A stretch of 64,000 nt of DNA from an uncultured Pseudomonadales bacterium. GTDB taxonomy: Bacteria; Patescibacteriota; Microgenomatia; UBA1400; PJMF01. The position numbers were made by a program, and so were the translations under genes. This document shows, piece after piece, positions 10,177-45,704 of the stretch. The stretch's first letter is position 1; each line of letters opens with the position of its first letter. Under the pieces are notes generated by a model. It ran no database searches. It was not told the DNA's origin and saw only the letters and a program-made list of their open reading frames with translations. The stretch lies in assembly GCA_964574595.1 (NCBI GenBank), contig CAZNOF010000003.1, positions 80,280-144,279 on the forward strand, given 5' to 3'.

Positions 10177-10358
10177 GAGGTTTCTAACCTTTCTTTACTT
10201 TTTAAGGACAAATGAGACGAATTTGACTGATTCAGCAAATGAATCACTTCGACATACTTGAGCAAAGTAATTATACCACTTTGAGCTATTTTAATGCATT
10301 TTATACACACAAATGTAAATACTTCTTTATTACTTATAAAAATGATAAAATCACAGCT

Positions 10359-29900: not shown

Positions 29901-30248
29901 AGATAATCGGATTTGAGCCTCAGTAAACATGATCAGGGAGTTTTTTTGATCTTGAGAAAGGCCTACAATTTTGTCGATAGTCTTCTCCAAGGAATCCATC
30001 ACCCGTTCTTGAAGACCAAAAATCTGAATGTCATCATCAAGAGTTGGTGTTTTAGAGGCTTTTTCGTAGGCTTTATCAAAATCTGGCTTAAATCGAGTTA
30101 TAAGCGTCAAAACGTCATCAACCGTTTTAATATTGGCTGGATCAATTGCTTCGGTCTCGAACGAATGGACAGCATTTGTTAAAGCCACTATCTTATCAGC
30201 AAGCTCAACTTGTTCTGCATCGTCTCTAACTTCGTGGTCAAATCGCAT
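26955..30248 (-). CDS. Large (1097 aa) hypothetical soluble protein in the T4SS-like locus
   Basis: The long uninterrupted ORF has no recognisable catalytic or NTP-binding motif and is D/E-rich. Confidence 0.5.
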   Translation of the reverse strand: MRFDHEVRDDAEQVELADKIVALTNAVHSFETEAIDPANIKTVDDVLTLITRFKPDFDKAYEKASKTPTLDDDIQIFGLQERVMDSLEKTIDKIVGLSQDQKNSLIMFTEAQIRLSRAINSPKVEYAEPQKKAAQQALRQITDEGHILAQSIPAERNRIDGIIQGATDAYNRSGLEDIDPLKNPYEDGEHDLEPAIDRIDTTLFKEPNKADSITNELRAYAKKVSTKGGRKPLDQGEEERVNEILRYATIQREDADSKSPLFAEAQKLEHLIRELLHENNVARLGGSQDARRRDFLRPSLLDDDFPADMDGLIQMMIGSYDQEIQEAEVLGRIMAAAKDAGTDMPGSLRDEDREFLRDFKDRFSQFFNRQLLQLQESFDLKDSDNQKYLDEFTLYMNQYLEWLKRLNKYSGATVPPGGVGGPPRTPGIPEDKEASRIPNGLMRRFLSSPEVGFREDQIAALGNEELKQLMWGWYFRQMDNDVGPGHLYQESGFDPRKMSFPGVANTPVDFTAIVGNMPEGAILNDDLYTMAQVFLASKRMYEYRQRKAEFTGAVSTPEAVYTGVIALEPFKIKDKVIPIPGIREKPTAGFPAIPDVIPERPGTFYHAQLKTIGDYTREAVLAVYNKTILADNPDSKYDILFNPTEAIKKISDHLRGANPNSTFFDAIAKFSGIYIEGAMQRGIFDEKVRRDFYQLSYLVNTGDTRAKYVKEEGRNSGSPGLELTIPFFHELYKPPLQRYPQKFAYDATKHPQAMAALDGQRRTFLRWLLDGNVPSDAIPTNGFPEGIAKKEEEAVGHSEKMLEAITKGTGLDWLSVASEVPRMDKSTFVTFNKHQAEKLTGLERAAFYYWNNDYKWPLKSKTEYDELMKIWTNPARADERITRGLPLRTFKRDHDGHYLDAAGNAIEEDLIHRIKAGDTSIPDPRAIEYVEMFTPKMCLMGNQADHALGHLLKHNEINKQQYDFLSGGLARVMDDKVDDQCTALIQYQMEIIFIAELMEIRKDGAKFNKWRENPEKNIKAIKEMLSHEAYLNYRGGWRQVYYNQSTLPRTDVMGRITGQEIPEGKYTGFGLLSERRVNDLLVAAGLMNYRKFEQKKK

Positions 30249-30264
30249 ATGAGTCTAACTTAAT

Positions 30265-32262
30265 CTATTTTATGGTGGCTATTTTCTGATTGTACTTAAG
30301 CACAATCGGTTTTAAATCATCCACTTCTTCTGGATTATATAACATTCTGTTCAGGATTTTAGCTACATTCCCTTTTTGGCTTGCCAACACACCTGGGGAA
30401 GCAGAATCAATTAAGTGATCTAGGGTCATTTTTAAGAGGTCAACACTAAATGTTTTAGAGGTTTTTACGACATCCATCGTCAGACCAGCAGCAGTTGCCC
30501 ACTCAGCAATTTGCTCTTCATGAGTAAGCTCCTTTTCTTTGACAGGATCTTGTGGATTTACCTCTTCAGCATTTGCTGCTGGTGTTGAGGTCTCATCACT
30601 AGTTTCTGAGGTCGCTTTTTGTTCTGGTGGCTGTGAAGCAGCCTTTTCTTGTGGCCGCTTTGGTTTAAATGTCTCATTCACGGGTTCTTGCACAGGAGCA
30701 GCTTTGGCGGCAGCATCTGGAGCCGATTGGTTGACTTGATCTGTGGTTGGAGCAGCTTGAGCTTTAGGATCTTCTCTTCTCACCCAATCTTTAGCTCTTC
30801 TCACAAAGCCGTCAAATGGACTGCCACTGTTTTTACTTTTTTCTGAGTCTGGTTGGTCTGCTTGAGGTGTCTTGGCTTGAGGTTCTGGAGCGGCTTTTGT
30901 CGGCTGTGCTTGTGGTTCAGCAACCGGAGCTTTTTTCTCGGCATTCGGCTGGACATTCGCAGGTTGAGGCTGACCGCCAGATTGGCGAGAACGCTTAATT
31001 TTCAGAACCATCTGTTCAGCGCCTCTTTTTCGAGTGGCAACGGGACTGTAATCTGCAATCGCTTGCCAAGCTTTTTCGTTATTTGGATCATCTTTGGTAA
31101 CTTCTTCAGCTAAGAGCAGAACTTGCTCTAGATCATTTCGTTCAATTGCCATTTTTAATGATTTAAGCAACGCTCCCACTTCTGCATTAATTGGAGTTTC
31201 TTCAACTTCTGGAGCTGCGGCTTTAGCATCCTGTTTTGCTGGCTCAGCTGCTGATGGGACTGACTCAGCCTTTGGGGCTGTTGGAATGAACGTGAGTCCA
31301 TAACCATCAAGCAGTTTAATAATATCTGGATTTGGTGGGGTTGATGGATTTACTTCACCAGATTTATACAATGGAAGAATTTGCTTTAAATAATTGTGTC
31401 TTTGACCTGGATCCTCAGCAGAAAGACCTAAGTCAGCGAGAATCTGTGGGTTCTTTTTGTAATCAGGAACGGCTAATAAAGACTGCTCGATACGCTTCTT
31501 TTCGGCATACGCAGCTTTTTTGACATCAGGATCTGATTCTTTATCAGTAGCAATTTCATGAAGATCAGTTAGGATTGCCCAACGTGCTTTGACATCGTTG
31601 GTTGCAGCCAATCGCTCACTACTTTTCGCAATTTGGGCTATCAGAGGACTTTCCGCTTGTGCATTGGCTGGAGGTTCTTGGTCTTGAGCCGGGACCTTGG
31701 CAGCTGAAGCTGGTTCTGCAACAGGTGGAGCTGATTTTAATTTATCAAGCTGTTCTTTTAATTCTCGATTTTCATCTTCAAGCTTCTGTTTTTCTTGTTC
31801 TAGTTGCTGGATTTTTTCTTTTTGCTCAGTAACTTCTTGTTGTAGTTCTTGCGTGGCGGCAGTCACAGCCTCAGTGGTTAACTCTTCAATCTGTTTTGGA
31901 TCTAAGGCAGCCTTCAGAAGGATTGATTCGATGACTTTACGAACGACCAATAACTCATTGATCTTTCTCTCACTCGCCTTTTCAATAATCTTGACTGATA
32001 TTTCAAGTTCAGGGGTTTTTTCTGCCTTTGCTTTATTGGCGATTTCAGTCACTTGAGCAATCAGCTGGTTTACCTCTTTGAGCGTTTTGGTTAGTTCTGA
32101 ATTATAGACATCATCTGATTTATTTTCCCTTTGTGGAAGCTCTGGTGAGGCAATTCGGACTATTTTAGACCAGTCTGGAGTGTAGGAAAGGTCTAGTTCA
32201 ACGACTTCTCGAGCAATTACTTCTGGAGTGGGGATATACTGTTGTTGTTCTGGTAACACCAT
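30265..32262 (-). CDS. Coiled-coil protein with P/A/Q-rich low-complexity central region (665 aa)
   Basis: It contains the heptad coiled coil QELQQEVTEQKEKIQQLEQEKQKLEDENRELKEQLDKLKS and long PEPQAKTPQADQP-type tracts. The overlapping plus-strand small ORFs are shadows. Confidence 0.5.
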   Translation of the reverse strand: MVLPEQQQYIPTPEVIAREVVELDLSYTPDWSKIVRIASPELPQRENKSDDVYNSELTKTLKEVNQLIAQVTEIANKAKAEKTPELEISVKIIEKASERKINELLVVRKVIESILLKAALDPKQIEELTTEAVTAATQELQQEVTEQKEKIQQLEQEKQKLEDENRELKEQLDKLKSAPPVAEPASAAKVPAQDQEPPANAQAESPLIAQIAKSSERLAATNDVKARWAILTDLHEIATDKESDPDVKKAAYAEKKRIEQSLLAVPDYKKNPQILADLGLSAEDPGQRHNYLKQILPLYKSGEVNPSTPPNPDIIKLLDGYGLTFIPTAPKAESVPSAAEPAKQDAKAAAPEVEETPINAEVGALLKSLKMAIERNDLEQVLLLAEEVTKDDPNNEKAWQAIADYSPVATRKRGAEQMVLKIKRSRQSGGQPQPANVQPNAEKKAPVAEPQAQPTKAAPEPQAKTPQADQPDSEKSKNSGSPFDGFVRRAKDWVRREDPKAQAAPTTDQVNQSAPDAAAKAAPVQEPVNETFKPKRPQEKAASQPPEQKATSETSDETSTPAANAEEVNPQDPVKEKELTHEEQIAEWATAAGLTMDVVKTSKTFSVDLLKMTLDHLIDSASPGVLASQKGNVAKILNRMLYNPEEVDDLKPIVLKYNQKIATIK

Positions 32263-32402
32263 AAATTCCTTGAATCTTCTCTGGCTTATTTTACATCTTC
32301 AGGTCATAGAAAAAAACAGACCAATTGTCTCTCATTATTATACGGTGATAACGAGTGAAGTTACAAGGAGTTATCAGGTGTTTTTATAGCACACGGACAC
32401 CA

Positions 32403-33734
32403 TTATGCTGCGTTAGGGAGCTCTTGATCGTTCTCTGTCTGTGATGGCGGCTGAGATGGTCGTTGAGCTTCTGGTTGAGGTTTGGATTCGGATGGAGTTG
32501 GAACAGAAGCAGCAGGCTCTGTAAAGTATTGGTCAAAAACATCCTCATCATTCTTTAAGTCCTCAAAGAAATTCCCAATCTCTTGACTAAACATCTTGCC
32601 ATATTGACCGGTAAACTCTTCAGAAACTTTTGTCCGAATAATGTGCCAACGAGCATTCACTTTATCCTCACCGTTAAATAACTCGTGCAAGAAAAGCTCC
32701 ATAAACTTCCTCATGGATTCAGGATCACCCTCTTTTGCCTTGGCAAATTGAGCTTCCATATCAGGGCTTCTCATCAGGCTTTTAAGTGCACCGTCAGAGG
32801 CATCATAAACTTTATAGAGCGCTTTAATAAAATCTTTTTGGCCATCTGGGCGCTTCAGCATACCTTGAAAATCTGATAAATCAATCACTTTTTCACCTTG
32901 TTCTTTACTTGACTCAAATTTGCCGCCAGAGGATCTTCCGTAACTTGTCGGGTTCATTAAGAAATCTAAAACGGTACCAAGGTCAACATCCTTGAAAGTC
33001 TCAAGATAGCCGACAGCCCATTGCATGCCTGCCTTCTTAAATGAGTCCAACCATGTTTTCTTTTTCTCTTCAAACCGAGGACTGCCTTTTTCTTCACCAG
33101 AAATTACAGCAAAGGCATCATCCAGATTTGTGGTCTTCAAAGATTCCGTTTCTTCAGCTACTTTCTCTTCTGCAAGTTTTTCGATATCCGCTTTAATCTG
33201 CTCGTCGTTTCTTGCCATGTAATCTTCAATAAACTCGGCAATAAACTCTTCTCTATTTGTCTCAGGTGGCTCGTTTAATAAGGCTGCTTCGGCTGCTGCC
33301 AGCGCATCCTTTTGATACTTTTCTGTCACCTGCCGCATCATCTCAGGATGAATTTTTGCCCGAACCACAGCGCTAATCTTTCCATCTTGTCCCCAATACT
33401 CATCGTATTTTGCTTGAACTGCTGCAATTTCCTTTTGCTCGGCTTGGTTCATTTCCGCCGTTTTCTTAATTGTGGCAATTTGTTCTTCGGTAAAGGCGCC
33501 AGAGGCAATTAAGTCATCAATAGGGACACTGTCCTTTTGCTGCGGGATGGCAAGGCCTTTTTCTTGATCATTAGGAGCAACTTGGGCGAGATCTTTTGAC
33601 CCAGTTGTTGTCAAGGTAGTGGTTTGTGCATCAGGAAGATTGATATCTGGACCAGTGGTCGCATTTGGATCAACCGGCGCTGGCTCTGGACTAGGTATTT
33701 CTGTAAATTCGCCTTCTGAAATTTCTTCATTCAT
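32403..33734 (-). CDS. Acidic hypothetical protein (443 aa)
   Basis: This E/D-rich ORF has no recognisable motif. Confidence 0.45.
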   Translation of the reverse strand: MNEEISEGEFTEIPSPEPAPVDPNATTGPDINLPDAQTTTLTTTGSKDLAQVAPNDQEKGLAIPQQKDSVPIDDLIASGAFTEEQIATIKKTAEMNQAEQKEIAAVQAKYDEYWGQDGKISAVVRAKIHPEMMRQVTEKYQKDALAAAEAALLNEPPETNREEFIAEFIEDYMARNDEQIKADIEKLAEEKVAEETESLKTTNLDDAFAVISGEEKGSPRFEEKKKTWLDSFKKAGMQWAVGYLETFKDVDLGTVLDFLMNPTSYGRSSGGKFESSKEQGEKVIDLSDFQGMLKRPDGQKDFIKALYKVYDASDGALKSLMRSPDMEAQFAKAKEGDPESMRKFMELFLHELFNGEDKVNARWHIIRTKVSEEFTGQYGKMFSQEIGNFFEDLKNDEDVFDQYFTEPAASVPTPSESKPQPEAQRPSQPPSQTENDQELPNAA

Positions 33735-33951: not shown

Positions 33952-35793
33952 ATGTCAAAAGAGACCCCCTTCTACTCAGAAGCGGCTGACTTTCAGCCCT
34001 CAAAAGAACGTTTTAACCCAGAAGTAACTTCACAGGAGTCATTGTGGCGAATTGATTTTATTTTAAAACGATATTCTCAGGGTGACTTAACTCACCCTCG
34101 GGAAGCGCTCAGAACAGATTTTCAGGCTTTAGCCCATGAAGAACTCCTAGCTCAGCGGAAAATGTCGTGGAGTCGAGAGCTGCATGACTATGGCACAACT
34201 GGTGGAGGCTACGATGATCCTCTTCAAAGAATGACCCAAAACTACGTCTCCTATATCGGCCGAGAAAATGGCGATATCAGTCGGGCGATTCTAGAAAACT
34301 TGATGTTAAAAGAGACAGAGACTATCGCCGCCGAAACAGCGGAAGAACCAGGCACATTCATGGTTTGGATTAGTCCACCTGGTCCAGTAGAACAAGGCTA
34401 TCAAGGTATTACCTCAGCTCAAGACTGGACTGCTCCGGAAAAATTCCCTTCCAAAATCTACATTATGTGGTCTGAGGGCGCCGAAATGAAAACGGTTCAG
34501 TTAACTGGTTGGCCAAATGTGGATCAGCTCGTTTCCTTCTGGGAGAAGCTCAATGGCAAACCGTTTCCTCATGGCGATAAAGAAAATATTTTGCTGGAAC
34601 TCATTGCCAACTTGACAGTGAAAAAGGACTTTGCGGGAACACCTGAAGAGTTCGTGAATCAGGTTTCGCAAGATTTCTTTGCTTCTCAGGAAAGCTGGAG
34701 CAATGCCGTAGAGATGCCCAGCGTGAATCCGGAGAAATTTGATCAAGAAGTTGAAAAAGGCTGGCAAGAATTTTATTGGCCAGAAGTTCAAAAGTTGTTA
34801 AGCGTCATTCCGAAAGATTTAACCGACAACGATCCATTCTGGAGCTCTGAAGAATACCGGCAAGTAGTTCAAGAACTTGACTTGGCTTTTGCTTATTACT
34901 TCAGAACACTTAGTCTCTTTGTTTCTCAAGGTGATAAAGCAAAAATGATTCCCTGGCCAAAAGTCAGAAAATCATTTCATTTTGACTGTGATGTAAAGGT
35001 GTATGGCAAAAAAGCATCTGTTCGAGAGATGAAAAATCACACTGCCGTCTTGAGGACATTCATGGACATCGGGAACAAAGGATTTAGTGTCTCGCAATGT
35101 GGACTACTCGCACCATTCCCAACAGCGCTAAACGCAATGAAAAGCGCCGGGAACTTTAATGGTGTGCTAGGACTGAACGGGAATTTTAAGAAAGAATTTT
35201 CCCCAGCATATGCTGAAAAACTACAGTCGGAGGAGTATCAGTTAAAACTCGCCGAGTATCAACGAATTCAAACAGGTAATTACCAAGAGCTCACATTGAC
35301 CGTGAATGGTGAAGATGTTCACTACATGGTTCCGGCAGACTTTTTGACTGGCAAGGGATGTTTTGTGGCTGAAGTTGATGGCCAAGAGGTTGCCATGGGA
35401 CCGTGTGATATTCCGCTAGACACCATCTTTAAAGACCCAAATGAAAATCTTGTCTACAAAATGTCTGCTTTAGAATTTGCCGAACATGCGAGGCAACTCT
35501 ACAACTTTCTATTTGCTGATGAGCTAGAAACAGCGGCCAATAGTATTGACAAGAACCCACAGCTTTCACAAACAGAGAAACAAAAGGCGAAGCAACTACT
35601 TGCTGAGCTCGAAACAATTATTTTTAAGCCAACTATCGGTCTAAGTGAGTTGGTCGCTGGCGTGACACCATTCAATGAAGATGCTGGTCTGTACTTGCCT
35701 GGACAGATTACCCAACAACTTCATCAGTCAAAGAATCCTATAAAATTGCTGGAAGAAATGGTCTTTTCCACGTCTGTGTTTAGTAGCTCTTGA
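33952..35793 (+). CDS. Hypothetical protein (613 aa), translationally coupled to the downstream giant protein
   Basis: Its stop overlaps the 35790 start (ATGA). Confidence 0.5.
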   Translation: MSKETPFYSEAADFQPSKERFNPEVTSQESLWRIDFILKRYSQGDLTHPREALRTDFQALAHEELLAQRKMSWSRELHDYGTTGGGYDDPLQRMTQNYVSYIGRENGDISRAILENLMLKETETIAAETAEEPGTFMVWISPPGPVEQGYQGITSAQDWTAPEKFPSKIYIMWSEGAEMKTVQLTGWPNVDQLVSFWEKLNGKPFPHGDKENILLELIANLTVKKDFAGTPEEFVNQVSQDFFASQESWSNAVEMPSVNPEKFDQEVEKGWQEFYWPEVQKLLSVIPKDLTDNDPFWSSEEYRQVVQELDLAFAYYFRTLSLFVSQGDKAKMIPWPKVRKSFHFDCDVKVYGKKASVREMKNHTAVLRTFMDIGNKGFSVSQCGLLAPFPTALNAMKSAGNFNGVLGLNGNFKKEFSPAYAEKLQSEEYQLKLAEYQRIQTGNYQELTLTVNGEDVHYMVPADFLTGKGCFVAEVDGQEVAMGPCDIPLDTIFKDPNENLVYKMSALEFAEHARQLYNFLFADELETAANSIDKNPQLSQTEKQKAKQLLAELETIIFKPTIGLSELVAGVTPFNEDAGLYLPGQITQQLHQSKNPIKLLEEMVFSTSVFSSS

Positions 35794-38700
35794 GCGCTAT
35801 AATTACAGAACACGTTATGTCTCTTCGCATTAATCAGCAACTTCGGAACCCAGAAGGAATAGCCAGACTTCTTGAGAGAATCAAGGATGGGTTAAGCGTT
35901 CGGTCCCCCGACTATATTAGTGCTAATACTATCTTTTATCTTGATAAAGATTTCACAATTGAGGGAACAGCTCCCTTTCAAGCCGATCAACCAATTATCA
36001 TTAATCCAAATGCCAAGAAATCGGGAGAAATTGCCGACAAAGGTGGCGCTCCACAAAGTTTAACGTTATTTGACGTCTTTTTACTTTTGAATCAGGCTTA
36101 CGCCGAACTATACGACCCCGATTTCAACAAAAAATACGTTTCAAATCAGCCAAATGGCCGACAACTTGCTTTTTTTGAACATCTAAAAGAAACAAAAGAT
36201 AATTACCTAGCGACAAAGGCTCATGAGATTGAATCTGGTAATGTCACTATTCCAAATAAAGAAGAGTTACTCACGGAGATTGTTGAAAGTTTGGCAGAAG
36301 CCATAGAAGCACTTTTTGCTGAGGGACAAGGGGCTGAAGAAAAAAAGGAAGATAATCGAACGGAAGAAATTCCAGAGTGGCTTAAGGCTGCCTTGGAAGA
36401 ACCTTTGCGGGATAAAAAGCACTGGAAACTCATTGCTGAAATAATCAAACCCAAAGAAGACAAAAAAGGCTTTTTAGAAATTGCTATTGACCGATATCGG
36501 AATATTCAGTCGCAAAATCGAGCAGATTTCCCGGGTATACAACTCAAAACAAAAGAAGAATTGATCTCGATTGTAGCCCTCAGAAAATTCCTCAACGAAT
36601 GGGCTGAAAAAATTCTAGAAGAAGATACTCATGACCCTTTCAGACATTTCAGATTTACATCTGAAGCTGATAAAAACTTGATCTTTTTCCCAGTAGTTGA
36701 TAAAGGAACAGCGGTTAATGATCTCGAGCTCGTTCAAGACTTGGATGTCCAGGCCGTTCGATCATTTAAAGAATGGCTGCTTCTTCCACTTGAAGAGTAT
36801 GAAGACAAAGAAGATGGCGAACACGTAAATGGAACCGAGCATGAAGATGGTGGTGGAGATGAAGGTGATGACAAAACTGAGAAGAAAAAAGCCGACCTTC
36901 CTAAGACAGATCAAGAAAAAGAAGAACTCATCAAGAACCTCAATGAGCATCAAGCGTTTGTGCGACAGGAAACGCTTCGTCTGCAAACCATTGCTACGAA
37001 CTTTGTTCTTTCTTTTAATAACCTTCCAACCTCACTAGGTAACGACTTACTTGGCACTGATAAGCACATCTTCTTTGAATATTTTGAACGAGAAATTAAC
37101 TCTGAAATCATGGAGATGCTGAGTCGAAATGGTGATGCTCTAAATGATGAGAATCGCCGTGCTCAGATAACAAGACAGTTCTTGTTTAGGTTAATGGCCA
37201 ATCCTAAGTTCCAAGCTCACTTAGCACTACTGAGAGAAAAGTACATTGACGTTCAAATTGATAAACAGAACCCAGATATTCCGGCAGAAGAACGCGCCGA
37301 ACTCAAGAAGCAACTCCTTGAAGACCTTATTCAACATCCTAAAGCAGACGTTAATCAACTTTTAACTGAAGTCTACTCAGCCATGAAGGTCTCTGCTCTG
37401 GCTGGTCTTACAGAGACACAAGAAAAGCAGATTCGCGAAGAACTCGTCAAGAAACTTAATTCAAACCCACGTTTGAATGTTGATGCTTTCTTAACTGATA
37501 CCTTTGCCGCCGTGAAAGTAGCTTCTGGTGTTGGTGGCTTGTCAGCCGGACAACAAGTTGAATTAACAACCCGTCTCAAAGCCGGCCTCGCCAAAAATCC
37601 AAAAGCTTCAATTGATGATCTTCTTAAACAGTTGTATGCAGAGATGCAGGCATCCGCTTCTCCACTCACAGACGCACAACAAGCTGAGTTAAGGAAACAG
37701 TTTCAAGGAAGGTTTAGTACGAACCCACTTGATCGTATTGAGCTCATTTTAAATGAGATTTATGCCTCAGTTCCTAATTTATCGGATGCACAAAAAAATA
37801 CTCTCAGACAACAACTCACAGCAGGTCTTTCCAGAAATGCGGCCGTTAATATTGATGAGATTATTAAAGGTCTTTCAAAGGAATTACCAGCATCGGATCC
37901 AAATAAAGCTGTTTTCAACACAGGCGCACTGACTAAAGATCATTTTCTTGAACTTTTGAAGTATTACGACCTAACTCCTGAACAACAAAATGCACTGTTT
38001 GAAGGCGTGGACTTACTCATGTTCATGAGAGTCTCACCAGAGAGAATCTCTCGATTCACGTCAGCCCAGCTCATTGAAATTTTTGGCGTAGATATCTCAC
38101 AGCTCCCTAAAAATCACGGTGATGAGTTCGTAAATATTCTCACTTCATATTTCATGCTGCGTCGACAATGGTTTGAGAAAGAATATAACTCCGCATCCGT
38201 CAGCCAAGCTCAAGACATTATCTACAATGACCGGGCACTCACAGATGAAGAGTTAAAACTCTTGTTAGAGCAGAAAGCAATGATTAAGAAAAGTGGTTTG
38301 GGTGCCAAACACTTTGTTCGTGCATCAGTTCTGACGAAAGCTCAAGTAGCTAACTTTAAATCTTCCGGACATGCAGAAGCCGAGGAAACAGAAGTTGCCG
38401 CCAATCTCCTCCAAGAAAATCGCAAACGCCTGTATATTGAGCTCGCTAAACAGTTCGCTGAGCAAGATGAAGAGTACCGAAAATACTTAATGAACCAGGT
38501 AGGTGTTCATTTTAATGATGCCAATTTCTTAAATTTAATTGAGACAAGCATGGACATGTCGCCCTTTGAATATCAAAGTGGCGTGGTTACAAATGAAGAT
38601 CAGCAAGTTATTCATAGTGCGGCGCAAGCAGAGCAAAACTATGCTGAAGGAAAGAAAGCTGGCTTTTCTAATACAGCATTAAGTGCGGTAGCAGACGAGG

Positions 38701-40184
38701 GCGCCGCATTACTAGGAAGCGCCGCCGCAAACGCTGTTTTGCCAGGTGTGGGCTTCTTCATTCCTAAATCAGCAAAGAAAACAATTGGTAAAGCCGTAGC
38801 CATAGGTGGCGCTGTTGTAGGTGGCGGTGCTGTTTTAGCTCTTGGCCAGTTGGTCAGTCAATTTGGCGCTGTTGGTGGGAGTGCCATCTTTTTTGGAGCC
38901 GTGGGTGGAGTCTTTGGTGGAGTCTTCGGAGCCATTGGCGGTGCCATTGCAGGAGCTGGTTTTGGTGCAGCCTTGCAGAGTAGTGGAATTGGACTCAGTA
39001 ATTTAACTGGTGGGGCTGGCGGTGCCGTTGCTAGTACCGCAGCAACTCCTGCCGCAACTGCGGCTGCTCCATCTTTAGCAGCCAAGGCCGCTGGGGCAAT
39101 CAGATCAGTAGTTTCAAGTCCAGCCGGTGTAGCAGTCACTGGATTTGTGGGTGTGAGTACAGTGGGTTCAGTCCTCGTGTACACCCAACTCACGACCGCC
39201 TTTTTACCACCGATTGTTCAAACCACGACTGAGTATGCCTCTGTCACTAAGACAGCTACTCCCTCAAAAGCAGCTCAGCCGACAACGGTGAATTACACAG
39301 TGAACATTTCCGCAAATCCAACCTATAAAATTGAAATTACTGACATAACAGACACAATTGTAGCAATTTCTAAAGATCCTAATAACCATCCAGCAACTCC
39401 ACCACCAGTAGATTTAAGTAAATATAAGACCACTCTTGATTCTGCTGGAACTGCTTCTACAAATATCACCTACTCAGTTCCTTTTGATAGTAGCTACGTG
39501 GATAGTTTAGTCACCAACACCTTTACGATTAAGTACACTGTTACAGACGCAGGCGTTACCTCAGATCAAGTTACATCTGCTACCGCAACCACTTGCTTTG
39601 GTGATTGTCCTGCTCCAAAGGTGGGCTGTTGGCCAGCTTCTGGATTGATTTGGGAAGGTCCATATGAATCGCCACAATCAACTCATAATCATCCCAGTAA
39701 GGGATCATCTGTTTGGGTTTTCCTTGATGCTGTCGATATCTCAAACGGCACGCCACAGCCAGTACCCATCTATACACCTTTTGATGGCACCGCATCCTTT
39801 TATACATACAATCAGACAACTGGCGAAGGGGCTGGCGGCAATTACGGAAATCGTGTTGCGGTGAGAACCAGTACAGGAGCTGTCCTTTTATTTGCTCACT
39901 TTGAACGATTCATGCCAACATTCCAGCCAGGACAGTCCTATCCCGTTCATGCGGGAGACCAACTTGGGTTTATGGGCACAACGGGAAATGCTGGACCGGG
40001 CGTCTACGGAAAGCACTTGCACTATGAGTACCGTCCCGCCAAAACTGGAGCTCAGGGTGGCGCACCTTCTATCAGTAATCTCTCCTTGTTGCTGCCAGAG
40101 CCAGTTCAGTACACGTCAAAGTGGCAAGTTACGCGTAAACAACGTGTTGTGACAACATGTAATGGGACAGCAGCTACACCATAA
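35790..40184 (+). CDS. Giant (1464 aa) multi-domain protein: N-terminal soluble region with four to five tandem ~42-aa helical repeats, a Gly/Ala-rich multi-TM (GxxxG zipper) block, and a C-terminal M23 (LytM-type) metallopeptidase domain
   Basis: The repeats lie at about 37341-37908 (NVDAFLTDTFAAVKV..., SIDDLLKQLYAEMQ..., RIELILNEIYASV..., NIDEIIKGLSKEL). The hydrophobic Gly-zipper block lies at about 38690-39190 (GAVGGVFGGVFGAIGGAIAGAGFGAAL). The M23 motifs are HNHPSKGSSVWVFLDAVD, GTTGNAGPGVYGKHLHYEY and HxH, at about 39640-40050. Confidence 0.7.
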   Translation: MSAIITEHVMSLRINQQLRNPEGIARLLERIKDGLSVRSPDYISANTIFYLDKDFTIEGTAPFQADQPIIINPNAKKSGEIADKGGAPQSLTLFDVFLLLNQAYAELYDPDFNKKYVSNQPNGRQLAFFEHLKETKDNYLATKAHEIESGNVTIPNKEELLTEIVESLAEAIEALFAEGQGAEEKKEDNRTEEIPEWLKAALEEPLRDKKHWKLIAEIIKPKEDKKGFLEIAIDRYRNIQSQNRADFPGIQLKTKEELISIVALRKFLNEWAEKILEEDTHDPFRHFRFTSEADKNLIFFPVVDKGTAVNDLELVQDLDVQAVRSFKEWLLLPLEEYEDKEDGEHVNGTEHEDGGGDEGDDKTEKKKADLPKTDQEKEELIKNLNEHQAFVRQETLRLQTIATNFVLSFNNLPTSLGNDLLGTDKHIFFEYFEREINSEIMEMLSRNGDALNDENRRAQITRQFLFRLMANPKFQAHLALLREKYIDVQIDKQNPDIPAEERAELKKQLLEDLIQHPKADVNQLLTEVYSAMKVSALAGLTETQEKQIREELVKKLNSNPRLNVDAFLTDTFAAVKVASGVGGLSAGQQVELTTRLKAGLAKNPKASIDDLLKQLYAEMQASASPLTDAQQAELRKQFQGRFSTNPLDRIELILNEIYASVPNLSDAQKNTLRQQLTAGLSRNAAVNIDEIIKGLSKELPASDPNKAVFNTGALTKDHFLELLKYYDLTPEQQNALFEGVDLLMFMRVSPERISRFTSAQLIEIFGVDISQLPKNHGDEFVNILTSYFMLRRQWFEKEYNSASVSQAQDIIYNDRALTDEELKLLLEQKAMIKKSGLGAKHFVRASVLTKAQVANFKSSGHAEAEETEVAANLLQENRKRLYIELAKQFAEQDEEYRKYLMNQVGVHFNDANFLNLIETSMDMSPFEYQSGVVTNEDQQVIHSAAQAEQNYAEGKKAGFSNTALSAVADEGAALLGSAAANAVLPGVGFFIPKSAKKTIGKAVAIGGAVVGGGAVLALGQLVSQFGAVGGSAIFFGAVGGVFGGVFGAIGGAIAGAGFGAALQSSGIGLSNLTGGAGGAVASTAATPAATAAAPSLAAKAAGAIRSVVSSPAGVAVTGFVGVSTVGSVLVYTQLTTAFLPPIVQTTTEYASVTKTATPSKAAQPTTVNYTVNISANPTYKIEITDITDTIVAISKDPNNHPATPPPVDLSKYKTTLDSAGTASTNITYSVPFDSSYVDSLVTNTFTIKYTVTDAGVTSDQVTSATATTCFGDCPAPKVGCWPASGLIWEGPYESPQSTHNHPSKGSSVWVFLDAVDISNGTPQPVPIYTPFDGTASFYTYNQTTGEGAGGNYGNRVAVRTSTGAVLLFAHFERFMPTFQPGQSYPVHAGDQLGFMGTTGNAGPGVYGKHLHYEYRPAKTGAQGGAPSISNLSLLLPEPVQYTSKWQVTRKQRVVTTCNGTAATP

Positions 40185-40210: not shown

Positions 40211-41191
40211 ATGCAAGCGTTAAAGAGAAACTGGAAACTCATTTTTGGCATCACCATGGTTGTGCTATTTGTGGTGGGTACAATTTTAAAACTCATTACG
40301 CCAGCAACGGCTCCAGTCTTAAACGCCGTTTCCACGGCGCAAGCTCCAACCATCAAAAAACAAACAAGTTTCACTGGCGCAGTTATTAACTTACCTAAAA
40401 CGGCACCGACTGTTGCGACAACCCAGTCAATTTATTACGTGACAAACGCGCCCGTCTCATTAACCATTCTAGGAGCTAAACTCAATCTTCAATCAGCTGA
40501 TCAAGGCGTGACTTGGTATTCTGATAGTGGAGAAACACTGAGCCAGGATCCTTACTCGAATCGAATTGGCTACTCAAACTTAGGTACCGAGGAGGCAACA
40601 GATTCTGCAAAATTGCCACCTGTAAATGTGGAAACAGCTACATCCGTTGCTACTGCATATCTGGCCAACAAACTCCAAATTACTACATTGGTGGCAGACG
40701 CCCCAAACATCACATTAAAACAAACTGGTTATGAGGATGACTACTACGATGTGGGTAAAGCCGACATTGCTGTCATCCCGTTTGTCTATCAAGTTGGTGG
40801 CCAACCCGTCTTTACTGATTCAGATCTCTTTCCTCAAATGACCGTTCAAGTAAACAGCTTAGGGAAAATTTTAAATTTCACCATGGCTCCCAATCTTATA
40901 ACCGCAGTTACACAAGAAGTGAAAGTGAAAACCCTGCCGTTTGAGCAGATAAAGAATCAAATTTTGGCAAATAAAGTTGGCGTGTTGCAAATTAGCAGTG
41001 AATCACCAGACGGTTTTACGATACAAAAACTCAAGCAACTTGATATTACGTCTGCAACAGTTGAATATCGATTAAATACGGCCAGTAGTCAGGTTCTCCC
41101 CTACTATCGACTTTTCAGCACTGCAACGCTCTTATCTGGCACTGTTTCCCAACTCCAACTTATCACCCCAGCCGTGGTAACAACTCCATAA
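40211..41191 (+). CDS. Membrane-anchored extracytoplasmic protein (326 aa), unknown function
   Basis: A single N-terminal TM (LIFGITMVVLFVVGTIL) is followed by a Thr/Val-rich beta-like domain. Its size and topology are compatible with a VirB8/TcpC-like assembly factor, but this is speculative. Confidence 0.4.
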   Translation: MQALKRNWKLIFGITMVVLFVVGTILKLITPATAPVLNAVSTAQAPTIKKQTSFTGAVINLPKTAPTVATTQSIYYVTNAPVSLTILGAKLNLQSADQGVTWYSDSGETLSQDPYSNRIGYSNLGTEEATDSAKLPPVNVETATSVATAYLANKLQITTLVADAPNITLKQTGYEDDYYDVGKADIAVIPFVYQVGGQPVFTDSDLFPQMTVQVNSLGKILNFTMAPNLITAVTQEVKVKTLPFEQIKNQILANKVGVLQISSESPDGFTIQKLKQLDITSATVEYRLNTASSQVLPYYRLFSTATLLSGTVSQLQLITPAVVTTP

Positions 41192-41212: not shown

Positions 41213-42571
41213 ATGAAAGATCACGCCTTGCCCCAAGACGTTACCGGATATAAGTTTCATATCATCGGTAACATGACGCTTAAACAGTTTGCAGAAGTTG
41301 CAGCTGGCGTTGGCGTAGGTTTTTTAATTTACTTCACCAATTTACCGGATCTTATCAAGTGGCCGCTTATTTTGACCTTTGCTGGAGTGGGTGCGTTAGC
41401 TGCTTTTGTGCCATTTGAGGAACGACCTTTAGATCACTGGATCATGTCTCTTTTCAAAGCGCTTTACAGACCAACCCAATTTTATTGGAAAAGGATGTCA
41501 AAGATTCCAGAATCTTTGCTATATGAATCAAAAACAGAATTACATACGTTGGTAAAAGAAGTTGATTTAACTCCAGCCAGACGACAGCGCGTAAAAGAGT
41601 ACCTCCACTCCGTCGTTCCAACAGAAGAGAATGACTCGATTCAGGATTACACAAACCAAAGATTAAACGAAGTGATGACTGTCTTCGATCAAGTGGTGTA
41701 CCAGCCACAGCCAGAACTTCAAATTCAACCTGACCAACTAGCTCAACCAGAATATGCACCAATGCAGCCATCATTTGCGACTGAACCAGCAATCGCGGAA
41801 ATTCCTCAACCTGAACCAATGGCTGCTCAAATGACCGAGCCAATTGCTCAACCCATGCCAGTAGCTCAAGCTGCCGAACCAGCTCAAGCTCAGGCAGCCC
41901 CAAATTGGCCAGACGCTCAACCCACCTCAATACCAGCCAATGAACAAGCAAATTCTGTTTCATTTAAGCAGACACAAAAACAAGTTGATCCAAATGCCAA
42001 CGTGCCGTTATCTATTTCACAAGGGTTTGTCTCTGGGGTAGAAATTAAAACTAAGCAAAGTAACTCGACATCAGTGAATGACATTGCCACTGCGGCAAAT
42101 TTATTAAACCAGGGTGTCTCTGTGCCACAAGCTCAAGGAATTTCAGTAGCCAGAACGCAACTAGATGATTTTGGACCAAGAACATCACCACAAAATGAGA
42201 ATCAAGTGGGTGACACCTACATTACCAGTCAAAATTTAAATACCAACCAAGGTCCACAGGCCACACAGATGGCGGTTCAAGATAAGACGCTCCCCTTCCC
42301 TGCCAAGCCAACTCAACCAAATAAAATTGTTGGCATGTCTATAGATAGTAATAATGTGCCGCTAAGCAACGTGATTATTGAAATCTTAACGCCAGAAGGT
42401 ATTCCAGCCAGAGCTGTTAAGACGAATATTTTAGGTCAATTTTTTATCACTACCCCATTAGGAAATGGAACATATACAATATCTGCAGAAAAAGCAGGCT
42501 ATACTTTTCCACCCCAGAGCCTAGAATTAACAGGGCAGGTACTAGATCCTATTGAAGTGAGAAGCCAATAA
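41213..42571 (+). CDS. PrgI-family (VirB3-like) T4SS membrane protein with Q/P-rich linker and C-terminal carboxypeptidase-regulatory-like beta domain
   Basis: The N-terminus, KQFAEVAAGVGVGFLIYF...LILTFAGVGALAAFVPFEERPLDHWIMSLFKALYRP, resembles PrgI/VirB3 (two TM). The C-terminus, IIEILTPEGIPARAVKTNILGQFFITTPLGNGTYTISAEKAGY, is CarbopepD_reg-like. Confidence 0.5.
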   Translation: MKDHALPQDVTGYKFHIIGNMTLKQFAEVAAGVGVGFLIYFTNLPDLIKWPLILTFAGVGALAAFVPFEERPLDHWIMSLFKALYRPTQFYWKRMSKIPESLLYESKTELHTLVKEVDLTPARRQRVKEYLHSVVPTEENDSIQDYTNQRLNEVMTVFDQVVYQPQPELQIQPDQLAQPEYAPMQPSFATEPAIAEIPQPEPMAAQMTEPIAQPMPVAQAAEPAQAQAAPNWPDAQPTSIPANEQANSVSFKQTQKQVDPNANVPLSISQGFVSGVEIKTKQSNSTSVNDIATAANLLNQGVSVPQAQGISVARTQLDDFGPRTSPQNENQVGDTYITSQNLNTNQGPQATQMAVQDKTLPFPAKPTQPNKIVGMSIDSNNVPLSNVIIEILTPEGIPARAVKTNILGQFFITTPLGNGTYTISAEKAGYTFPPQSLELTGQVLDPIEVRSQ

Positions 42572-42573
42572 CC

Positions 42574-43542
42574 ATGCAAAATCAAAACGCCATCACCTCC
42601 ACCACTCAGCAATATATTGAAATTTACGATATTACCAATGATTTAGTCATTCAAAAGTCTGGTGGAGTTTCACTCGTTTTAAGTGTTACCGCCATGAACT
42701 TTGGTTTATTAGCAGAGGAAGAGCAAGACGCCATTATTTATGGGTACGCTGGTTTACTCAACTCACTCAATTATCCAATTCAAATCGTGATTCGATCTCA
42801 GACAAAAGACGTGACGAGTTATTTAAATAGTTTGAAGTTAAAAGAAGACGAGACAATCAACCGTGTCCGTAAGGATCAAATTCGAAAATATCGCGAGTTT
42901 GTGGCCGATCTCGTTCAAGAACGAAATGTTTTGGATAAAAAGTTTTATGTGGTCATCCCTGCCACAGCGCTTGAGTTGGGCTTAGTTACCACCCAAAGTG
43001 TTTTGCCCGGTGTGAAAAGTCCAGACATCTCTTCGTTTGACAGAAGTGTGATTATTGAGAGAGCAACCCAATTACTCGAGCCAAAACGGGACCACTTGAT
43101 GGCTCAATTTTCACGAATTGGCTTGTCTTCTAAGCAATTAAAAACTCAAGAACTGATTCAGTTGTTCTACACGATTTATAACCCAGAAGCATCTGAAGGT
43201 CAGAAGATGACGGATAGTAGTAGTTACACGACAGCATTAGTCGAAGGCAATTTAGAGGAAGAGGTATTTGGTGCCACCCGTTCTCAAACTCCAGACAACC
43301 TGAAACATCCGGCACCAGTCGTTCAGGAAGAAACTGTCACACAACCTATTCAGCCAGCTCCTCAGATGGAACAACCAGCTCAAGTTGCCACAGAAGTTTC
43401 AGTTGATGAATTGCCAATGGCTCCCGCCATTCAACAAACGCCAGAAGAACAAGTTGCGGCTCAATCGGCAGCCATCGCTACAGACGCTCCCATTATCAAT
43501 ACTCAGGACGCACCACTTCCGCCACCAGTGGAGATTGTTTAA
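42574..43542 (+). CDS. Hypothetical protein between the PrgI-like and VirB4 genes; possible detached VirB4 N-terminal domain
   Basis: The 322-aa ORF has no NTP motif and a Q/P-rich tail. Its position matches where the VirB4 N-terminal domain would be encoded. Confidence 0.4.
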   Translation: MQNQNAITSTTQQYIEIYDITNDLVIQKSGGVSLVLSVTAMNFGLLAEEEQDAIIYGYAGLLNSLNYPIQIVIRSQTKDVTSYLNSLKLKEDETINRVRKDQIRKYREFVADLVQERNVLDKKFYVVIPATALELGLVTTQSVLPGVKSPDISSFDRSVIIERATQLLEPKRDHLMAQFSRIGLSSKQLKTQELIQLFYTIYNPEASEGQKMTDSSSYTTALVEGNLEEEVFGATRSQTPDNLKHPAPVVQEETVTQPIQPAPQMEQPAQVATEVSVDELPMAPAIQQTPEEQVAAQSAAIATDAPIINTQDAPLPPPVEIV

Positions 43543-43553
43543 AATAGGAACTA

Positions 43554-45704
43554 ATGCCCTCTTTTTCTTTACCAAACCTTCCATTTTTACCTAAGAAACC
43601 TGTTGCCGCAGAAGACGAAGCACAGCAAATGAAGGATCATAACGAGAAAATTCTCAAAGAGTTTTCTCAGGGCCTAGTCACTATTCAGGATATTATCGCT
43701 CCTGAAGCTATTGAGGTGGACTTTACCTTTCAAAAAATTAACTCTACCTACACCAGAACATTATTTGTAGCCGGCTACCCGAGAACCGTCCCATCAAACT
43801 GGTTATCTCCGTTGATTAACTTTCCACATCAGCTCGATATTGCCATGTACATCTATCCTGTAGACGTTCGTGAAGTGCTTGATAACTTAAAGCGCAAGAT
43901 TACAGAAATGGAAGCTGAAATTACCTCTGACTTGAGAAATGGTCGAATTAGTAACATTGATACCGAAGTAAAACTTGAAGACGCCAGAATTATTCGTGAG
44001 CAGTTAGCAAAAGGAGCTGAGCGTTTCTATCAGTTCGGTTTGTACATCACTATTCAAGCCAAAGACAAAGATGAGTTGGAACGAGTCACAAAGAGTGTCC
44101 AGTCCACATTGGGTTCATTGTTAATTGTTTCCAAAAAAGCCACATTACAAATGGATGAAGGTTTTAAAACGACTTTGCCATCTGGCAGCGATAAATTAAT
44201 GATCACGAGAAACATGGATACCACGTCCCTAGCGACCACATTTCCATTCACTTCTTCAGAACTGACCATGGAAACCGGTATTGTGTACGGAATTAATGAG
44301 CATAATGATTCGTTGGTGGTCTTCGACCGATTTAAAATGGAAAACTTTAATATGGTTATCTTCGCCAAATCTGGTGCAGGAAAATCATTCACCGTTAAAT
44401 TGGAAATTTTGCGCCAGTTAATGTTCGATACAGAAGTCTTAGTTCTCGACCCAGAACACGAGTACGAAGAGCTGACCAAGTCGGTTGGCGGCGAGTATAT
44501 TAACTTCACTTTTAATTCTCAGGCAAAGATTAATCCTTTTGACTTATCAAACGTTTATGAAGAAGGCGAAAATGAACTCGGTCAAAAGATTATTCACTTA
44601 CACGCTCTCTTAAAAGTCATGCTTGGTGAGATGACGCCAACTCAAGACGCTATTCTCGATAGAACTTTGGTGGCAGCATATAAAGCCAAAGGCATTACCC
44701 CTGATCCAGCTACTCAAACCAATGAACCACCTTTAATGGAAGATCTCTACAAAGCCTTAATTGGTATGGAAAATGAAGATGCTGCCAATATTGCGGCTCG
44801 CTTAGAGAAGTTTATTACTGGATCTTTCAGAGGTATTTTTGACCAGAAATCGAACATTAACATTAAAAACCAATTGACCGTCTTCTCTGTCCGTGAAATG
44901 GAAGAAGAAATGCGACCAATTGCCATGTTTGTGATTCTGGACTTTATGTGGACCAGAATTCGTAAAAAATTGAAAAAGCGATTACTCGTTGTTGATGAAG
45001 CCTGGTACTTCATGAGATATCCAGATTCAGCCTTCTTCTTACAGTCAATTGCCAAGCGTGCTCGTAAATACTATCTCGCCGTTACCACTGTCACCCAGGA
45101 CGTAGAAGACTTTATGGCGAACGACTTTGGGAAAGCAATTGTTACAAACGCTTCTATTAAATTCTTAATGAAGCAGTCCTCTGCCTCAGTGCCCATTTTG
45201 GCAGAAACATTCTACTTATCTGAAGGTGAGAAGCAGTTGCTCGTCTCCTCAGATGTAGGAGAAGGTATCTTCTTTGCCGGACAAAATCACGTGGCTTTGC
45301 GGGTCGTCGCCAGTCCAGATGAATACGGTTTGATTACCACCAACCCAGAAGAAATCTTAAAACAACGGAACAGCGCCCAGATTGCTGATCAAGGTGGCAG
45401 TCCCATTACCCAATCAGTTAGAGCTGGATTAACTGCCGGTATTCCATTACAAGGCAATATGGGTGGAGGCGCACCAATGCGACCACCTCAATTCCAAAGT
45501 CAGGCACAAAATTTACCGCTGGCTCCTCAGCCAGGGAATCCACTAAATACTGTTCAAACGAGAAGAGTCCAAATTCCAACGACTCAAGCAGCCGCCCCAG
45601 CACCACAACCGATCCAAACGGCTACAGCGAACGGTTCGGGTATTCCTGAACCAAAACAGTACGCTGGTACATTTACCATTGACGATTATCAACCGCCCAA
45701 GTAA
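43554..45704 (+). CDS. VirB4/TrbE/PrgJ-family T4SS ATPase
   Basis: Walker A, VIFAKSGAGKSFTV, lies at about 44361-44390. Walker B, RLLVVDEAWYFM, lies at about 44985-45010. A C-terminal Q/P-rich tail is present. Confidence 0.85.
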   Translation: MPSFSLPNLPFLPKKPVAAEDEAQQMKDHNEKILKEFSQGLVTIQDIIAPEAIEVDFTFQKINSTYTRTLFVAGYPRTVPSNWLSPLINFPHQLDIAMYIYPVDVREVLDNLKRKITEMEAEITSDLRNGRISNIDTEVKLEDARIIREQLAKGAERFYQFGLYITIQAKDKDELERVTKSVQSTLGSLLIVSKKATLQMDEGFKTTLPSGSDKLMITRNMDTTSLATTFPFTSSELTMETGIVYGINEHNDSLVVFDRFKMENFNMVIFAKSGAGKSFTVKLEILRQLMFDTEVLVLDPEHEYEELTKSVGGEYINFTFNSQAKINPFDLSNVYEEGENELGQKIIHLHALLKVMLGEMTPTQDAILDRTLVAAYKAKGITPDPATQTNEPPLMEDLYKALIGMENEDAANIAARLEKFITGSFRGIFDQKSNINIKNQLTVFSVREMEEEMRPIAMFVILDFMWTRIRKKLKKRLLVVDEAWYFMRYPDSAFFLQSIAKRARKYYLAVTTVTQDVEDFMANDFGKAIVTNASIKFLMKQSSASVPILAETFYLSEGEKQLLVSSDVGEGIFFAGQNHVALRVVASPDEYGLITTNPEEILKQRNSAQIADQGGSPITQSVRAGLTAGIPLQGNMGGGAPMRPPQFQSQAQNLPLAPQPGNPLNTVQTRRVQIPTTQAAAPAPQPIQTATANGSGIPEPKQYAGTFTIDDYQPPK

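Follow-up and report, generated by a model that had tools for sequence, protein, structure and literature searches.

Which enzyme opens the cell wall for Patescibacteria's type IV secretion system (T4SS)? The parts list of this machinery is incomplete, and the survey of Quinonero-Coronel et al. (2025), in which VirB1 homologues sought with TrsG, CD419 and VirB1 profiles were mostly unlinked to virB4, left the wall-breaching enzyme open, suggesting that other enzymes may fill the VirB1 role and citing the essential peptidase and lysozyme genes beside virB4 in Southlakia (PMC12102498). The locus described here lies in a 64,000-nucleotide stretch of DNA (the window; assembly GCA_964574595.1, contig CAZNOF010000003.1, positions 80,280 to 144,279 of the forward strand) from an uncultured bacterium that GTDB places in the Patescibacteriota (Microgenomatia, UBA1400, PJMF01). 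A gene 3.4 kb upstream of virB4, in one string of genes with it, encodes a giant protein (the giant) in which a large helical N-terminal domain, a Gly/Ala-rich hydrophobic block, an Ig-like spacer and an M23-like head follow one another. With a probability of roughly 0.55, the giant is a membrane-anchored wall-hydrolase subunit of the Patescibacterial T4SS, PrgK/TraG-like (VirB1-like) in function and with an enlarged cytoplasmic domain, a reading that we favor because its layout and its setting in an MPF_FATA-type operon follow the plan of PrgK and TraG.

The gene occupies 35817..40184 of the plus strand, stop codon included, as delimited from the list of open reading frames (ORFs), the translation, an identical database protein and the N-termini of homologues. 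It belongs to an uninterrupted plus-strand ORF (35790..40184) that opens with a TTG at 35790, a possible alternative start. A preliminary description of this DNA had given the protein 1464 residues and had coupled its translation to the upstream 613-aa gene through an ATGA overlap at 35790. The junction reads ctcTTGAgc instead, such that the TTG would overlap the upstream TGA stop. The database protein P0001 (1455 aa, 100% identical) starts at the ATG at 35817, and the N-termini of the homologues ('M[SP]LRI...') all align from the Met equivalent to this ATG, which lies 23 nt past the stop of the upstream gene (14 nt in the related locus L001). Because P0001 and all homologues start there, the true start is most likely ATG 35817, with a protein of 1455 aa and no ATGA overlap; residue numbers count from this ATG unless stated otherwise. 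The same homologues bear on whether the ORF could be an artefact in which a misassembly or a frameshift has joined separate genes, a scenario that the preliminary description had raised. Full-length colinear homologues are found in assemblies from independent NCBI, ENA and JGI sources, namely P0002 (1451 aa, 45% identity; a 322-kb ENA and a 107-kb JGI contig), P0003 (1481 aa, 38% identity; an NCBI metagenome-assembled genome, MAG), P0006 (1464 aa), P0007 (1341 aa), P0008 (1228 aa) and P0009 (1261 aa), and about 50 more loci show the same layout. As nothing was found to support a fusion and these homologues speak against it, the artefact is excluded for practical purposes, and the comparison indicates that the ORF is one real gene.

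The C-terminus of the giant is a Cys-containing M23/LytM head (residues 1266-1455; 39612..40181, plus strand) that is recognized by Pfam, by phmmer against the PDB and by Foldseek. With 38.0 bits (E 2e-9), PF01551 matches residues 1321-1417 of the 1464-aa translation above its curated cut-off of 28.7, the M23 domains of homologues score 36.9-45.3 bits, and the head matches M23 chains of the PDB (phmmer, E 1e-5) as well as M23/LytM structures (Foldseek, E down to 6e-6). Its key residues are C1271, H1292 (39690-39692), D1307 (39735-39737), H1361 (39897-39899), H1400 and H1402 (40014-40022) and C1448, where H1400-L-H1402 is the HxH motif and H1361, in 'FAHF', the additional catalytic His. H1292, D1307, H1361 and H1400 are invariant in a 47-member alignment, and H1402 is present in 45 of the 47. 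The canonical HxxxD is absent: Leu occupies the canonical His position, and H1292 sits 14 residues before D1307. We assign D1307 as the ligand Asp, and the Leu to the His position, because the 'D-I-A-A-P-x-G-T-P-V' of the relatives aligns with 'D-Y-A-A-P-Q-G-T-P-V' of NMB0315. The spacing between His and Asp varies from 6 to about 30 residues in the 47-member alignment, and the ligand set appears intact though unusually spaced. Since the profile threshold is passed and the catalytic residues are kept while the canonical HxxxD spacing fails, the head is best described, from its sequence, as a divergent M23-like peptidase. The LytM/M23 domain with intact HxxxD and HxH that had been announced for this position is therefore upheld in its domain and its HxH and corrected in its HxxxD, which is H-x14-D. 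LytM, lysostaphin, ShyA and NMB0315 share with the giant the Pfam threshold, the HxH, the catalytic His and the Asp ligand, and differ from it in having HxxxD in place of H-x14-D (the minimum among giants is H-x6-D). M23A enzymes such as LasA, a group that also includes beta-lytic protease, are known to space His and Asp further apart, and Foldseek hints at a LasA-type likeness of the head with a weak match to 3it5 (E 1.5e-3).

Ahead of the head, residues ~1139-1264 (39231..39608, plus strand) form an Ig-like spacer that AlphaFold2 (AF2) models entirely as beta-strands. What had been taken for a Thr-rich stalk is instead a folded Ig-like beta-sandwich, predicted confidently with a predicted local distance difference test (pLDDT) of 74-91, and a hidden Markov model (HMM) built from it detects it again in the giants of about 40 other loci.

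The Gly/Ala-rich hydrophobic block that precedes the spacer (residues 956-1135; 38682..39221, plus strand) was delimited by hydropathy scans, composition and family comparison, and contains 20% Gly, 23% Ala and 8 charged residues out of 180. A hydrophobic cluster at ~966-1063 is followed by an uncharged Ala/Ser/Thr/Gly linker and by a final transmembrane (TM) helix at ~1103-1130 that ends in a conserved AFLPP motif. The preliminary description had the block full of GxxxG motifs; the block itself is evident, but GxxxG is not in excess, with 10 observed against 6.9 +/- 2.1 expected (223 of 2000 shuffles reach that count), and only GxxxGxxxG is modestly enriched, with 5 against 1.3 +/- 1.2 expected (31 of 2000 shuffles). 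No N-terminal signal peptide or TM segment was seen in the hydropathy scans. The first 955 residues are highly charged (116 K+R, 158 D+E) and have no Cys, all four Cys lying past the last TM helix, and an even number of C-terminal Cys is seen in all seven close family members as well as in most proteins of the larger set. Across the family, the N-terminal side of the first hydrophobic cluster has an excess of K+R (3.2 vs 1.7), and in the window protein K984-K992 and K1090/R1096 flank uncharged stretches. These flanking charges would fit a hairpin (~993-1060) that is joined by a cytoplasmic linker to a final helix leading from in to out (~1103-1130). We infer an N-in/C-out topology because the protein lacks a signal peptide, has a charged N-terminus, carries Cys only in its C-terminal part, places an Ig-like spacer before the head and shows the K+R bias at the first cluster, and because M23 and CHAP heads act on peptidoglycan.

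The N-terminal domain comprises ~955 residues without a detectable signal or TM segment, in agreement with the large soluble N-terminus of ~950 residues expected earlier. Its AF2 model, built from a 7-sequence alignment (mean pLDDT 70.5; predicted template modelling score, pTM, 0.45), is all-alpha and shows compact helical bundles and hairpins with no single long coiled coil. Helical region A (residues 1-463; 35817..37205, plus strand) is modeled mostly at pLDDT 70-90, apart from an acidic, disordered Gly/Glu/Asp-rich linker at residues ~327-356 (pLDDT <50). It is followed by an array of ~42-aa helix-turn-helix repeats (residues 464-720; 37206..37976, plus strand) that is delineated by shuffle-controlled alignments and by hairpins in the model. 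The degenerate helical repeats proposed earlier are confirmed in four strong units at residues 510-678 (nt 37344-37850; periods 45/44/42/38 aa), joined by a weaker unit at 464-509 and a partial one at 679-720; pairwise local alignments of the units give z-scores of 5.8-12.4 with 0 of 300 shuffles reaching the observed score, each unit is modeled as a helix-turn-helix hairpin, and no DNA-level tandem repeat was found beneath the protein repeats. The array is present in P0002, P0003 and P0006 and absent from P0007-P0009, and because these last lack it we take it as an insertion in one subclade. The best-conserved stretch of the domain by alignment is residues 700-955 (37914..38681, plus strand), which includes the motifs RRQWFEKEYNS and KHFVRA, is matched in the distant members P0008 and P0009, and is 52% identical to L001 as against 45% for the whole giant.

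The N-terminal 955 residues match no family in Pfam, NCBIfam or PHROG and nothing in a PDB sequence search, the best Foldseek hit of the domain in the PDB has an E of only 0.3, and tblastn against PLSDB plasmids gave no match. The sole Pfam match, to TnsA_C, was rejected as spurious and of sub-threshold length. The search for homologues of this domain that had been called for did find relatives, rare by sequence: seven profile matches among 1.84 billion cluster representatives, six of them genuine. An iterated N-terminal HMM (iteration not converged) matches 33 of 56 giants end to end with no false positive in the ~1080 remaining ORFs, the only 'other' match being a 1139-aa ORF in the same slot of L055. 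Because of these matches without false positives, the N-terminal domain appears homologous across much of the family and hyper-divergent.

Phage tape measure or ejection proteins, for which T5 pb2, reportedly described by Boulanger et al. in 2008, is the basis of comparison, have their parts in the same order as the giant: first a long stretch of alpha-helices with repeats, then a Gly-rich hydrophobic segment and last an M23 domain at the C-terminus. By this analogy the giant would be a tape-measure- or ejectosome-like device whose helical protein is extruded, whose Gly-rich block channels the partner membrane and whose M23 domain digests the wall. The PHROG tape-measure families phrog_10030 and phrog_167 match the M23 domain of P0007/P0008, which they carry at their own C-terminal ends; Foldseek matches the M23 domain of a cyanophage pre-ejectosome (9k2v_A, E 3e-4); and the modest GxxxGxxxG enrichment would suit a channel-forming block. 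We consider this device improbable: PHROG shows no similarity outside M23, tblastn of residues 1-1135 against 50,697 INPHARED phage records found no match, scans of the window showed no phage genes nearby, the N-terminal model consists of bundles and hairpins in place of one long coiled coil, and the giant, unlike phage proteins, is chromosomal and fixed in a T4SS operon.

This operon begins with the gene for the soluble 613-aa protein (33952..35793, plus strand; no family match), homologues of which were detected by phmmer in L001/L002 (61% identity), L004, L006, L018, L035 and L038. The giant comes next and is followed on the plus strand by genes for p326, a bitopic protein of 326 aa whose TM helix is N-terminal and which has no Pfam or PDB sequence match (40211-41191), a 452-aa PrgI/VirB3-like protein (41213-42571; Pfam/NCBIfam), a 322-aa TrsD-like protein corresponding to the VirB4 N-domain (42574-43542; Pfam/NCBIfam) and the 716-aa VirB4 ATPase (43554-45704; NF045971 conju_CD1110, 376 bits). 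The downstream intergenic gaps are 2-26 nt, and dnaA and dnaN lie immediately after VirB4. The order of PrgI/VirB3, TrsD-like protein and VirB4 after the giant bears out the Gram-positive-type T4SS context proposed earlier. With a CD1110-type VirB4, a separate TrsD-like protein, PrgI, a dnaA-proximal position and no relaxase nearby, the locus has the marks of the Patescibacterial MPF_FATA-like T4SS and, by its gene content, corresponds to the chromosomal, relaxase-less, oriC-proximal systems of PMC12102498.

The position of the giant within this operon is fixed. We retrieved 80 loci from GTDB species genomes via VirB4 and searched their ORFs with HMMs of the Ig-like domain and the catalytic part; a contig scan with the giant itself as query gave no match while the VirB4 query worked, and a word-indexed homologue search with a TM+Ig profile returned two fragments, too few to size the family. 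Among GTDB species representatives, the closest VirB4 genes come without exception from MAGs of Patescibacteria, Pacebacteria, Woesebacteria and Microgenomates, and loci with a giant in the slot span Paceibacteria- and Microgenomates-type genomes. The gene order of the window is the same in L001-L003 and recurs in at least 40 loci. The slot counts refer to the 50 loci that extend 7.5 kb or more upstream of virB4. In the same slot, 40 of these have a large ORF of 828-1681 aa (>1000 aa in 38 cases) bearing Ig and/or M23-like domains, in the order giant, p326-like, PrgI, TrsD, VirB4, and the remaining 10 have an ORF of 1095-1439 aa there with the same layout and a different head. The slot proteins have N-terminal regions of 700-1100 residues without a signal peptide and with 0-2 Cys, then a hydrophobic block, then a C-terminal part with 2-14 Cys, an even count in nearly all of them. 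As such, the slot is occupied by a giant-type ORF in 50/50 checkable loci, with one copy per locus, and the architecture that had seemed unusual in the window is the common build of related Patescibacterial T4SS loci.

Such strict linkage to the p326-PrgI-TrsD-VirB4 block in the loci of 50 species bears on an alternative in which the giant would be an ordinary wall-remodelling or division enzyme of the EnvC/NlpD/LytM type that merely lies beside T4SS genes near oriC. M23 proteins are common housekeeping enzymes, the locus is chromosomal and adjoins dnaA-dnaN, and one fragmentary relative is annotated 'murein DD-endopeptidase MepM / NlpD' (JGI). A housekeeping enzyme is nonetheless very unlikely in view of this linkage, of the non-M23 heads that replace M23 while the slot and the N-terminal architecture stay, and of an evolution far faster than that of the housekeeping neighbors.

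The heads themselves are exchangeable. M23-like heads are the majority, and the M23 of L032 scores as canonical. In L072 (2297-6457) the head of the giant resembles CHAP (E 4e-5, narrowly below the Pfam cut-off), in L076 (4040-7366) it is a weakly Peptidase_C39-like, papain-fold head, and three giants (L018:2634-6953, L081:2875-6999 and P0009, on a JGI 3300078620 contig) have HExxH heads (HELGH or HETGH) instead of M23; these HExxH heads, that of P0009 included, match nothing in the PDB or Pfam and may be an unclassified zincin. Several further slot giants carry heads of no recognized type. The rates of divergence differ as sharply as the heads. VirB4 is 65-81% identical across 80 Patescibacterial species and strikingly conserved compared with its neighbors. 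Between the window and L001, VirB4 is 90% identical, DnaN 88%, DnaA 83% and the TrsD-like protein 81%; the VirB6 candidate discussed below is 66% identical, PrgI 62% and the 613-aa protein 61%; the giant reaches 45% as a whole and 31% in its M23 head; and p326 reaches 26%, with 40%, 21% and an undetectable level in three divergent soluble proteins. These identities indicate that the giant evolves at several times the rate of the core machinery, its head most of all.

Modular heads in orthologous slots (M23, CHAP, C39-like, HExxH and unrecognized) that are also the fastest part of the giant, set against the 83-90% of DnaA, DnaN and VirB4, raise a different possibility, in which the giant is a host-directed weapon or effector, displayed on or delivered by the T4SS against host peptidoglycan and possibly the host membrane, with the N-terminal domain serving in trafficking or recognition and the head acting as a swappable 'toxin'. 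Such a role has models in polymorphic toxin systems and in the peptidoglycan hydrolases that serve the T4SS of Xanthomonas as effectors. The cultivated Patescibacteria are epibionts in which the T4SS is essential for growth on the host (PMC10633639), the T4SS cluster is without relaxase and coupling protein (PMC10633639, PMC12102498), and Pfam/NCBIfam scans of the window proteins showed no VirD4-like gene near the locus. Several features speak against a weapon: the fixed place inside the structural operon with no immunity-like gene adjoining, the hydrophobic block and AFLPP helix before the Ig-like domain in all members, which would be more typical of an anchored subunit, and the single copy per locus. 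We regard the host-directed reading as a serious possibility but on balance unlikely, and it need not exclude an anchored wall hydrolase.

Comparison with the wall hydrolases of known T4SSs supports the anchored reading and also marks its limits. PrgK has an intracellular part (1-253), a TM helix (254-274) and then extracellular LytM, MUR and CHAP domains (PMC11323569), and CHAP and LytM are domains of both PrgK and TraG (PMC12857230, PMC11323569). Like the giant, PrgK (pCF10) and TraG (pIP501), of classes DELTA and ALPHA, lie inside an MPF_FATA-type operon, and they have the plan that is predicted for the giant, with an intracellular N-domain, a membrane anchor and one or more extracellular hydrolase domains; PrgK places LytM/M23 after its TM helix as the giant places M23, and the L072 relative has a CHAP-like head. 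The cytoplasmic domain of PrgK measures 253 aa against ~955 aa in the giant, with no detectable similarity between them; PrgK has one TM helix where the giant has a multi-segment Gly/Ala-rich hydrophobic block and an Ig-like spacer; and M23 is the sole catalytic domain of the giant, with intact ligands, whereas the LytM domain of PrgK is degenerate and its muramidase cuts. The contrast to PrgK/TcpG drawn in the preliminary description thus holds for size, the giant being much larger, and not for topology, as the predicted overall plan is that of PrgK and TraG. Because the giant has no SLT, MUR or CHAP domain and no N-terminal similarity, we do not file it as a homologue of PrgK, TraG or VirB1; the relation would be one of functional analogy and shared operon position.

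A closer parallel may exist in Saccharibacteria. The T4SS cluster of Southlakia epibionticum ML1 encodes, beside VirB4, the hypothetical protein SEML1_0007 (1113 aa), which is essential for epibiotic growth and of which only the last ~155 residues have been assigned, to a DD-peptidase fold whose structural neighbors include an M23-domain protein (PMC10633639). Like the giant it is large, T4SS-clustered and tipped by a C-terminal peptidase fold, a likeness drawn from published tables; it differs in its Hedgehog/DD-peptidase (M15-like) head and its position downstream of virB4, the giant having M23 and lying upstream of PrgI. By analogy, SEML1_0007 is likely the Saccharibacterial counterpart of the giant with another head. 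'Extended' VirB6 proteins resemble the giant as large T4SS membrane proteins with hydrophobic segments and big soluble domains (PMC12857230). They have no hydrolase head, the hydrophobic part of the giant is short, the giant has no Pfam or NCBIfam match to VirB6/TrbL or PrgH profiles, and the window holds a separate VirB6 candidate, a polytopic membrane protein of 551 aa whose N-terminus resembles a signal peptide and which matches no family (25000-26655, plus strand); it is probably a VirB6/PrgH-type translocon component and has homologues upstream in several other loci.

Several observations weigh against an anchored wall hydrolase. The AF2 model has a pLDDT of 42-69 over the M23 core and <50 around H1292-D1307, the predicted zinc site. 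The giant gives no Pfam or NCBIfam match to SLT, lysozyme-like, CHAP or NlpC/P60 domains and so lacks the SLT/muramidase and CHAP that are the active domains of PrgK and TraG, and the LytM domain of PrgK is itself degenerate and regulatory (PMC11323569). As to orientation, the first hydrophobic cluster is just 27-30 residues in some relatives, the charges around the last helix are too few family-wide to orient it, and an even number of predicted spans would leave M23 on the cytoplasmic side. Finally, a head that evolves this fast fits a host-directed role no less than a housekeeping one of 'hole-punching'.

In the anchored wall-hydrolase reading, the all-helical N-terminal domain of ~955 residues would remain in the cytoplasm as a docking site or scaffold for VirB4, the TrsD-like protein and PrgI, thereby associating the giant physically with the T4SS, with the 42-aa hairpin repeats as a lineage-specific lengthening of this domain. 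The Gly/Ala-rich block would anchor the protein, its final AFLPP helix crossing from inside to outside, and the Ig-like spacer would keep the predicted zinc M23 endopeptidase off the membrane. The peptidase would then locally cut peptide cross-links of peptidoglycan, giving passage to the secretion apparatus or pilus through a wall that would be the cell's own and possibly also that of an attached host.

Further proteins are encoded around the giant. p326, which directly follows the giant in the slot expected for a VirB8-like protein, has homologues after the giant in most related loci. The PrgI-like protein is long and has a weak CarboxypepD_reg-like (Ig-like) C-terminal domain, as it does in the P0008 and P0009 loci, and VirB4 is split in two, into the TrsD-like N-domain protein and the ATPase. 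On the P0008/P0009 contigs no gene of the 613-aa type was called upstream of the giant, which there directly follows a divergent promoter region, and opposite-strand genes for a histidine phosphatase and a GT4 glycosyltransferase lie between the p326-like gene and PrgI. A promoter and terminator scan of the operon in the window gave sites no more frequent than in shuffled sequence. Divergently oriented on the minus strand are three large soluble ORFs of 1097, 665 and 443 aa (26955-33734; no Pfam, NCBIfam or PHROG match), which keep their place beside the giant in L001/L002 and on the P0008/P0009 contigs. These very fast-evolving proteins are candidates for substrates of the T4SS or for accessory parts of it. 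A 471-aa membrane protein encoded some 30 kb away from the operon (10239-11654, plus strand) weakly resembles the T4SS pilin family PF18895 at its C-terminus (E 1e-4, under the cut-off). Two more proteins of >1000 aa are encoded at 20511-24014 and 51682-54888, both on the plus strand; one of the two carries a signal peptide and matches no family, the other has a DUF4012 domain and a central TM segment, and large unannotated envelope proteins are plentiful in the window.

A T4SS-associated, anchored wall hydrolase is a known kind of protein. What appears undescribed is a cytoplasmic domain of ~950 residues that has no fold relatives, a Gly/Ala anchor of several segments and the Ig-like spacer, together with the H-x(6-30)-D variant of M23 and, across Patescibacteria, a fixed place in the operon for proteins whose heads are exchangeable. 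A more far-reaching proposal, which we put forward as speculative, is that the giants are a Patescibacteria-specific core subunit of the T4SS, missed by profile surveys, that couples the ATPase platform to an exchangeable head directed at the host wall; the type of head would be matched to host peptidoglycan and so help to set host range, and the Gly-rich block may join the conduit.

A giant-type protein thus stands in a fixed slot of every related locus examined, yet is unnamed in T4SS surveys, and it combines an intracellular domain without known fold relative with a head whose type is swapped from lineage to lineage and whose rate of evolution is several times that of the ATPase. In Saccharibacteria, a version of this T4SS is essential for epibiotic growth (PMC10633639), and genetic tools now exist there for which the giant is a direct target. 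It is a concrete candidate for the missing wall-hydrolase subunit of the Patescibacterial T4SS, and a candidate determinant of the interaction of these bacteria with their hosts.

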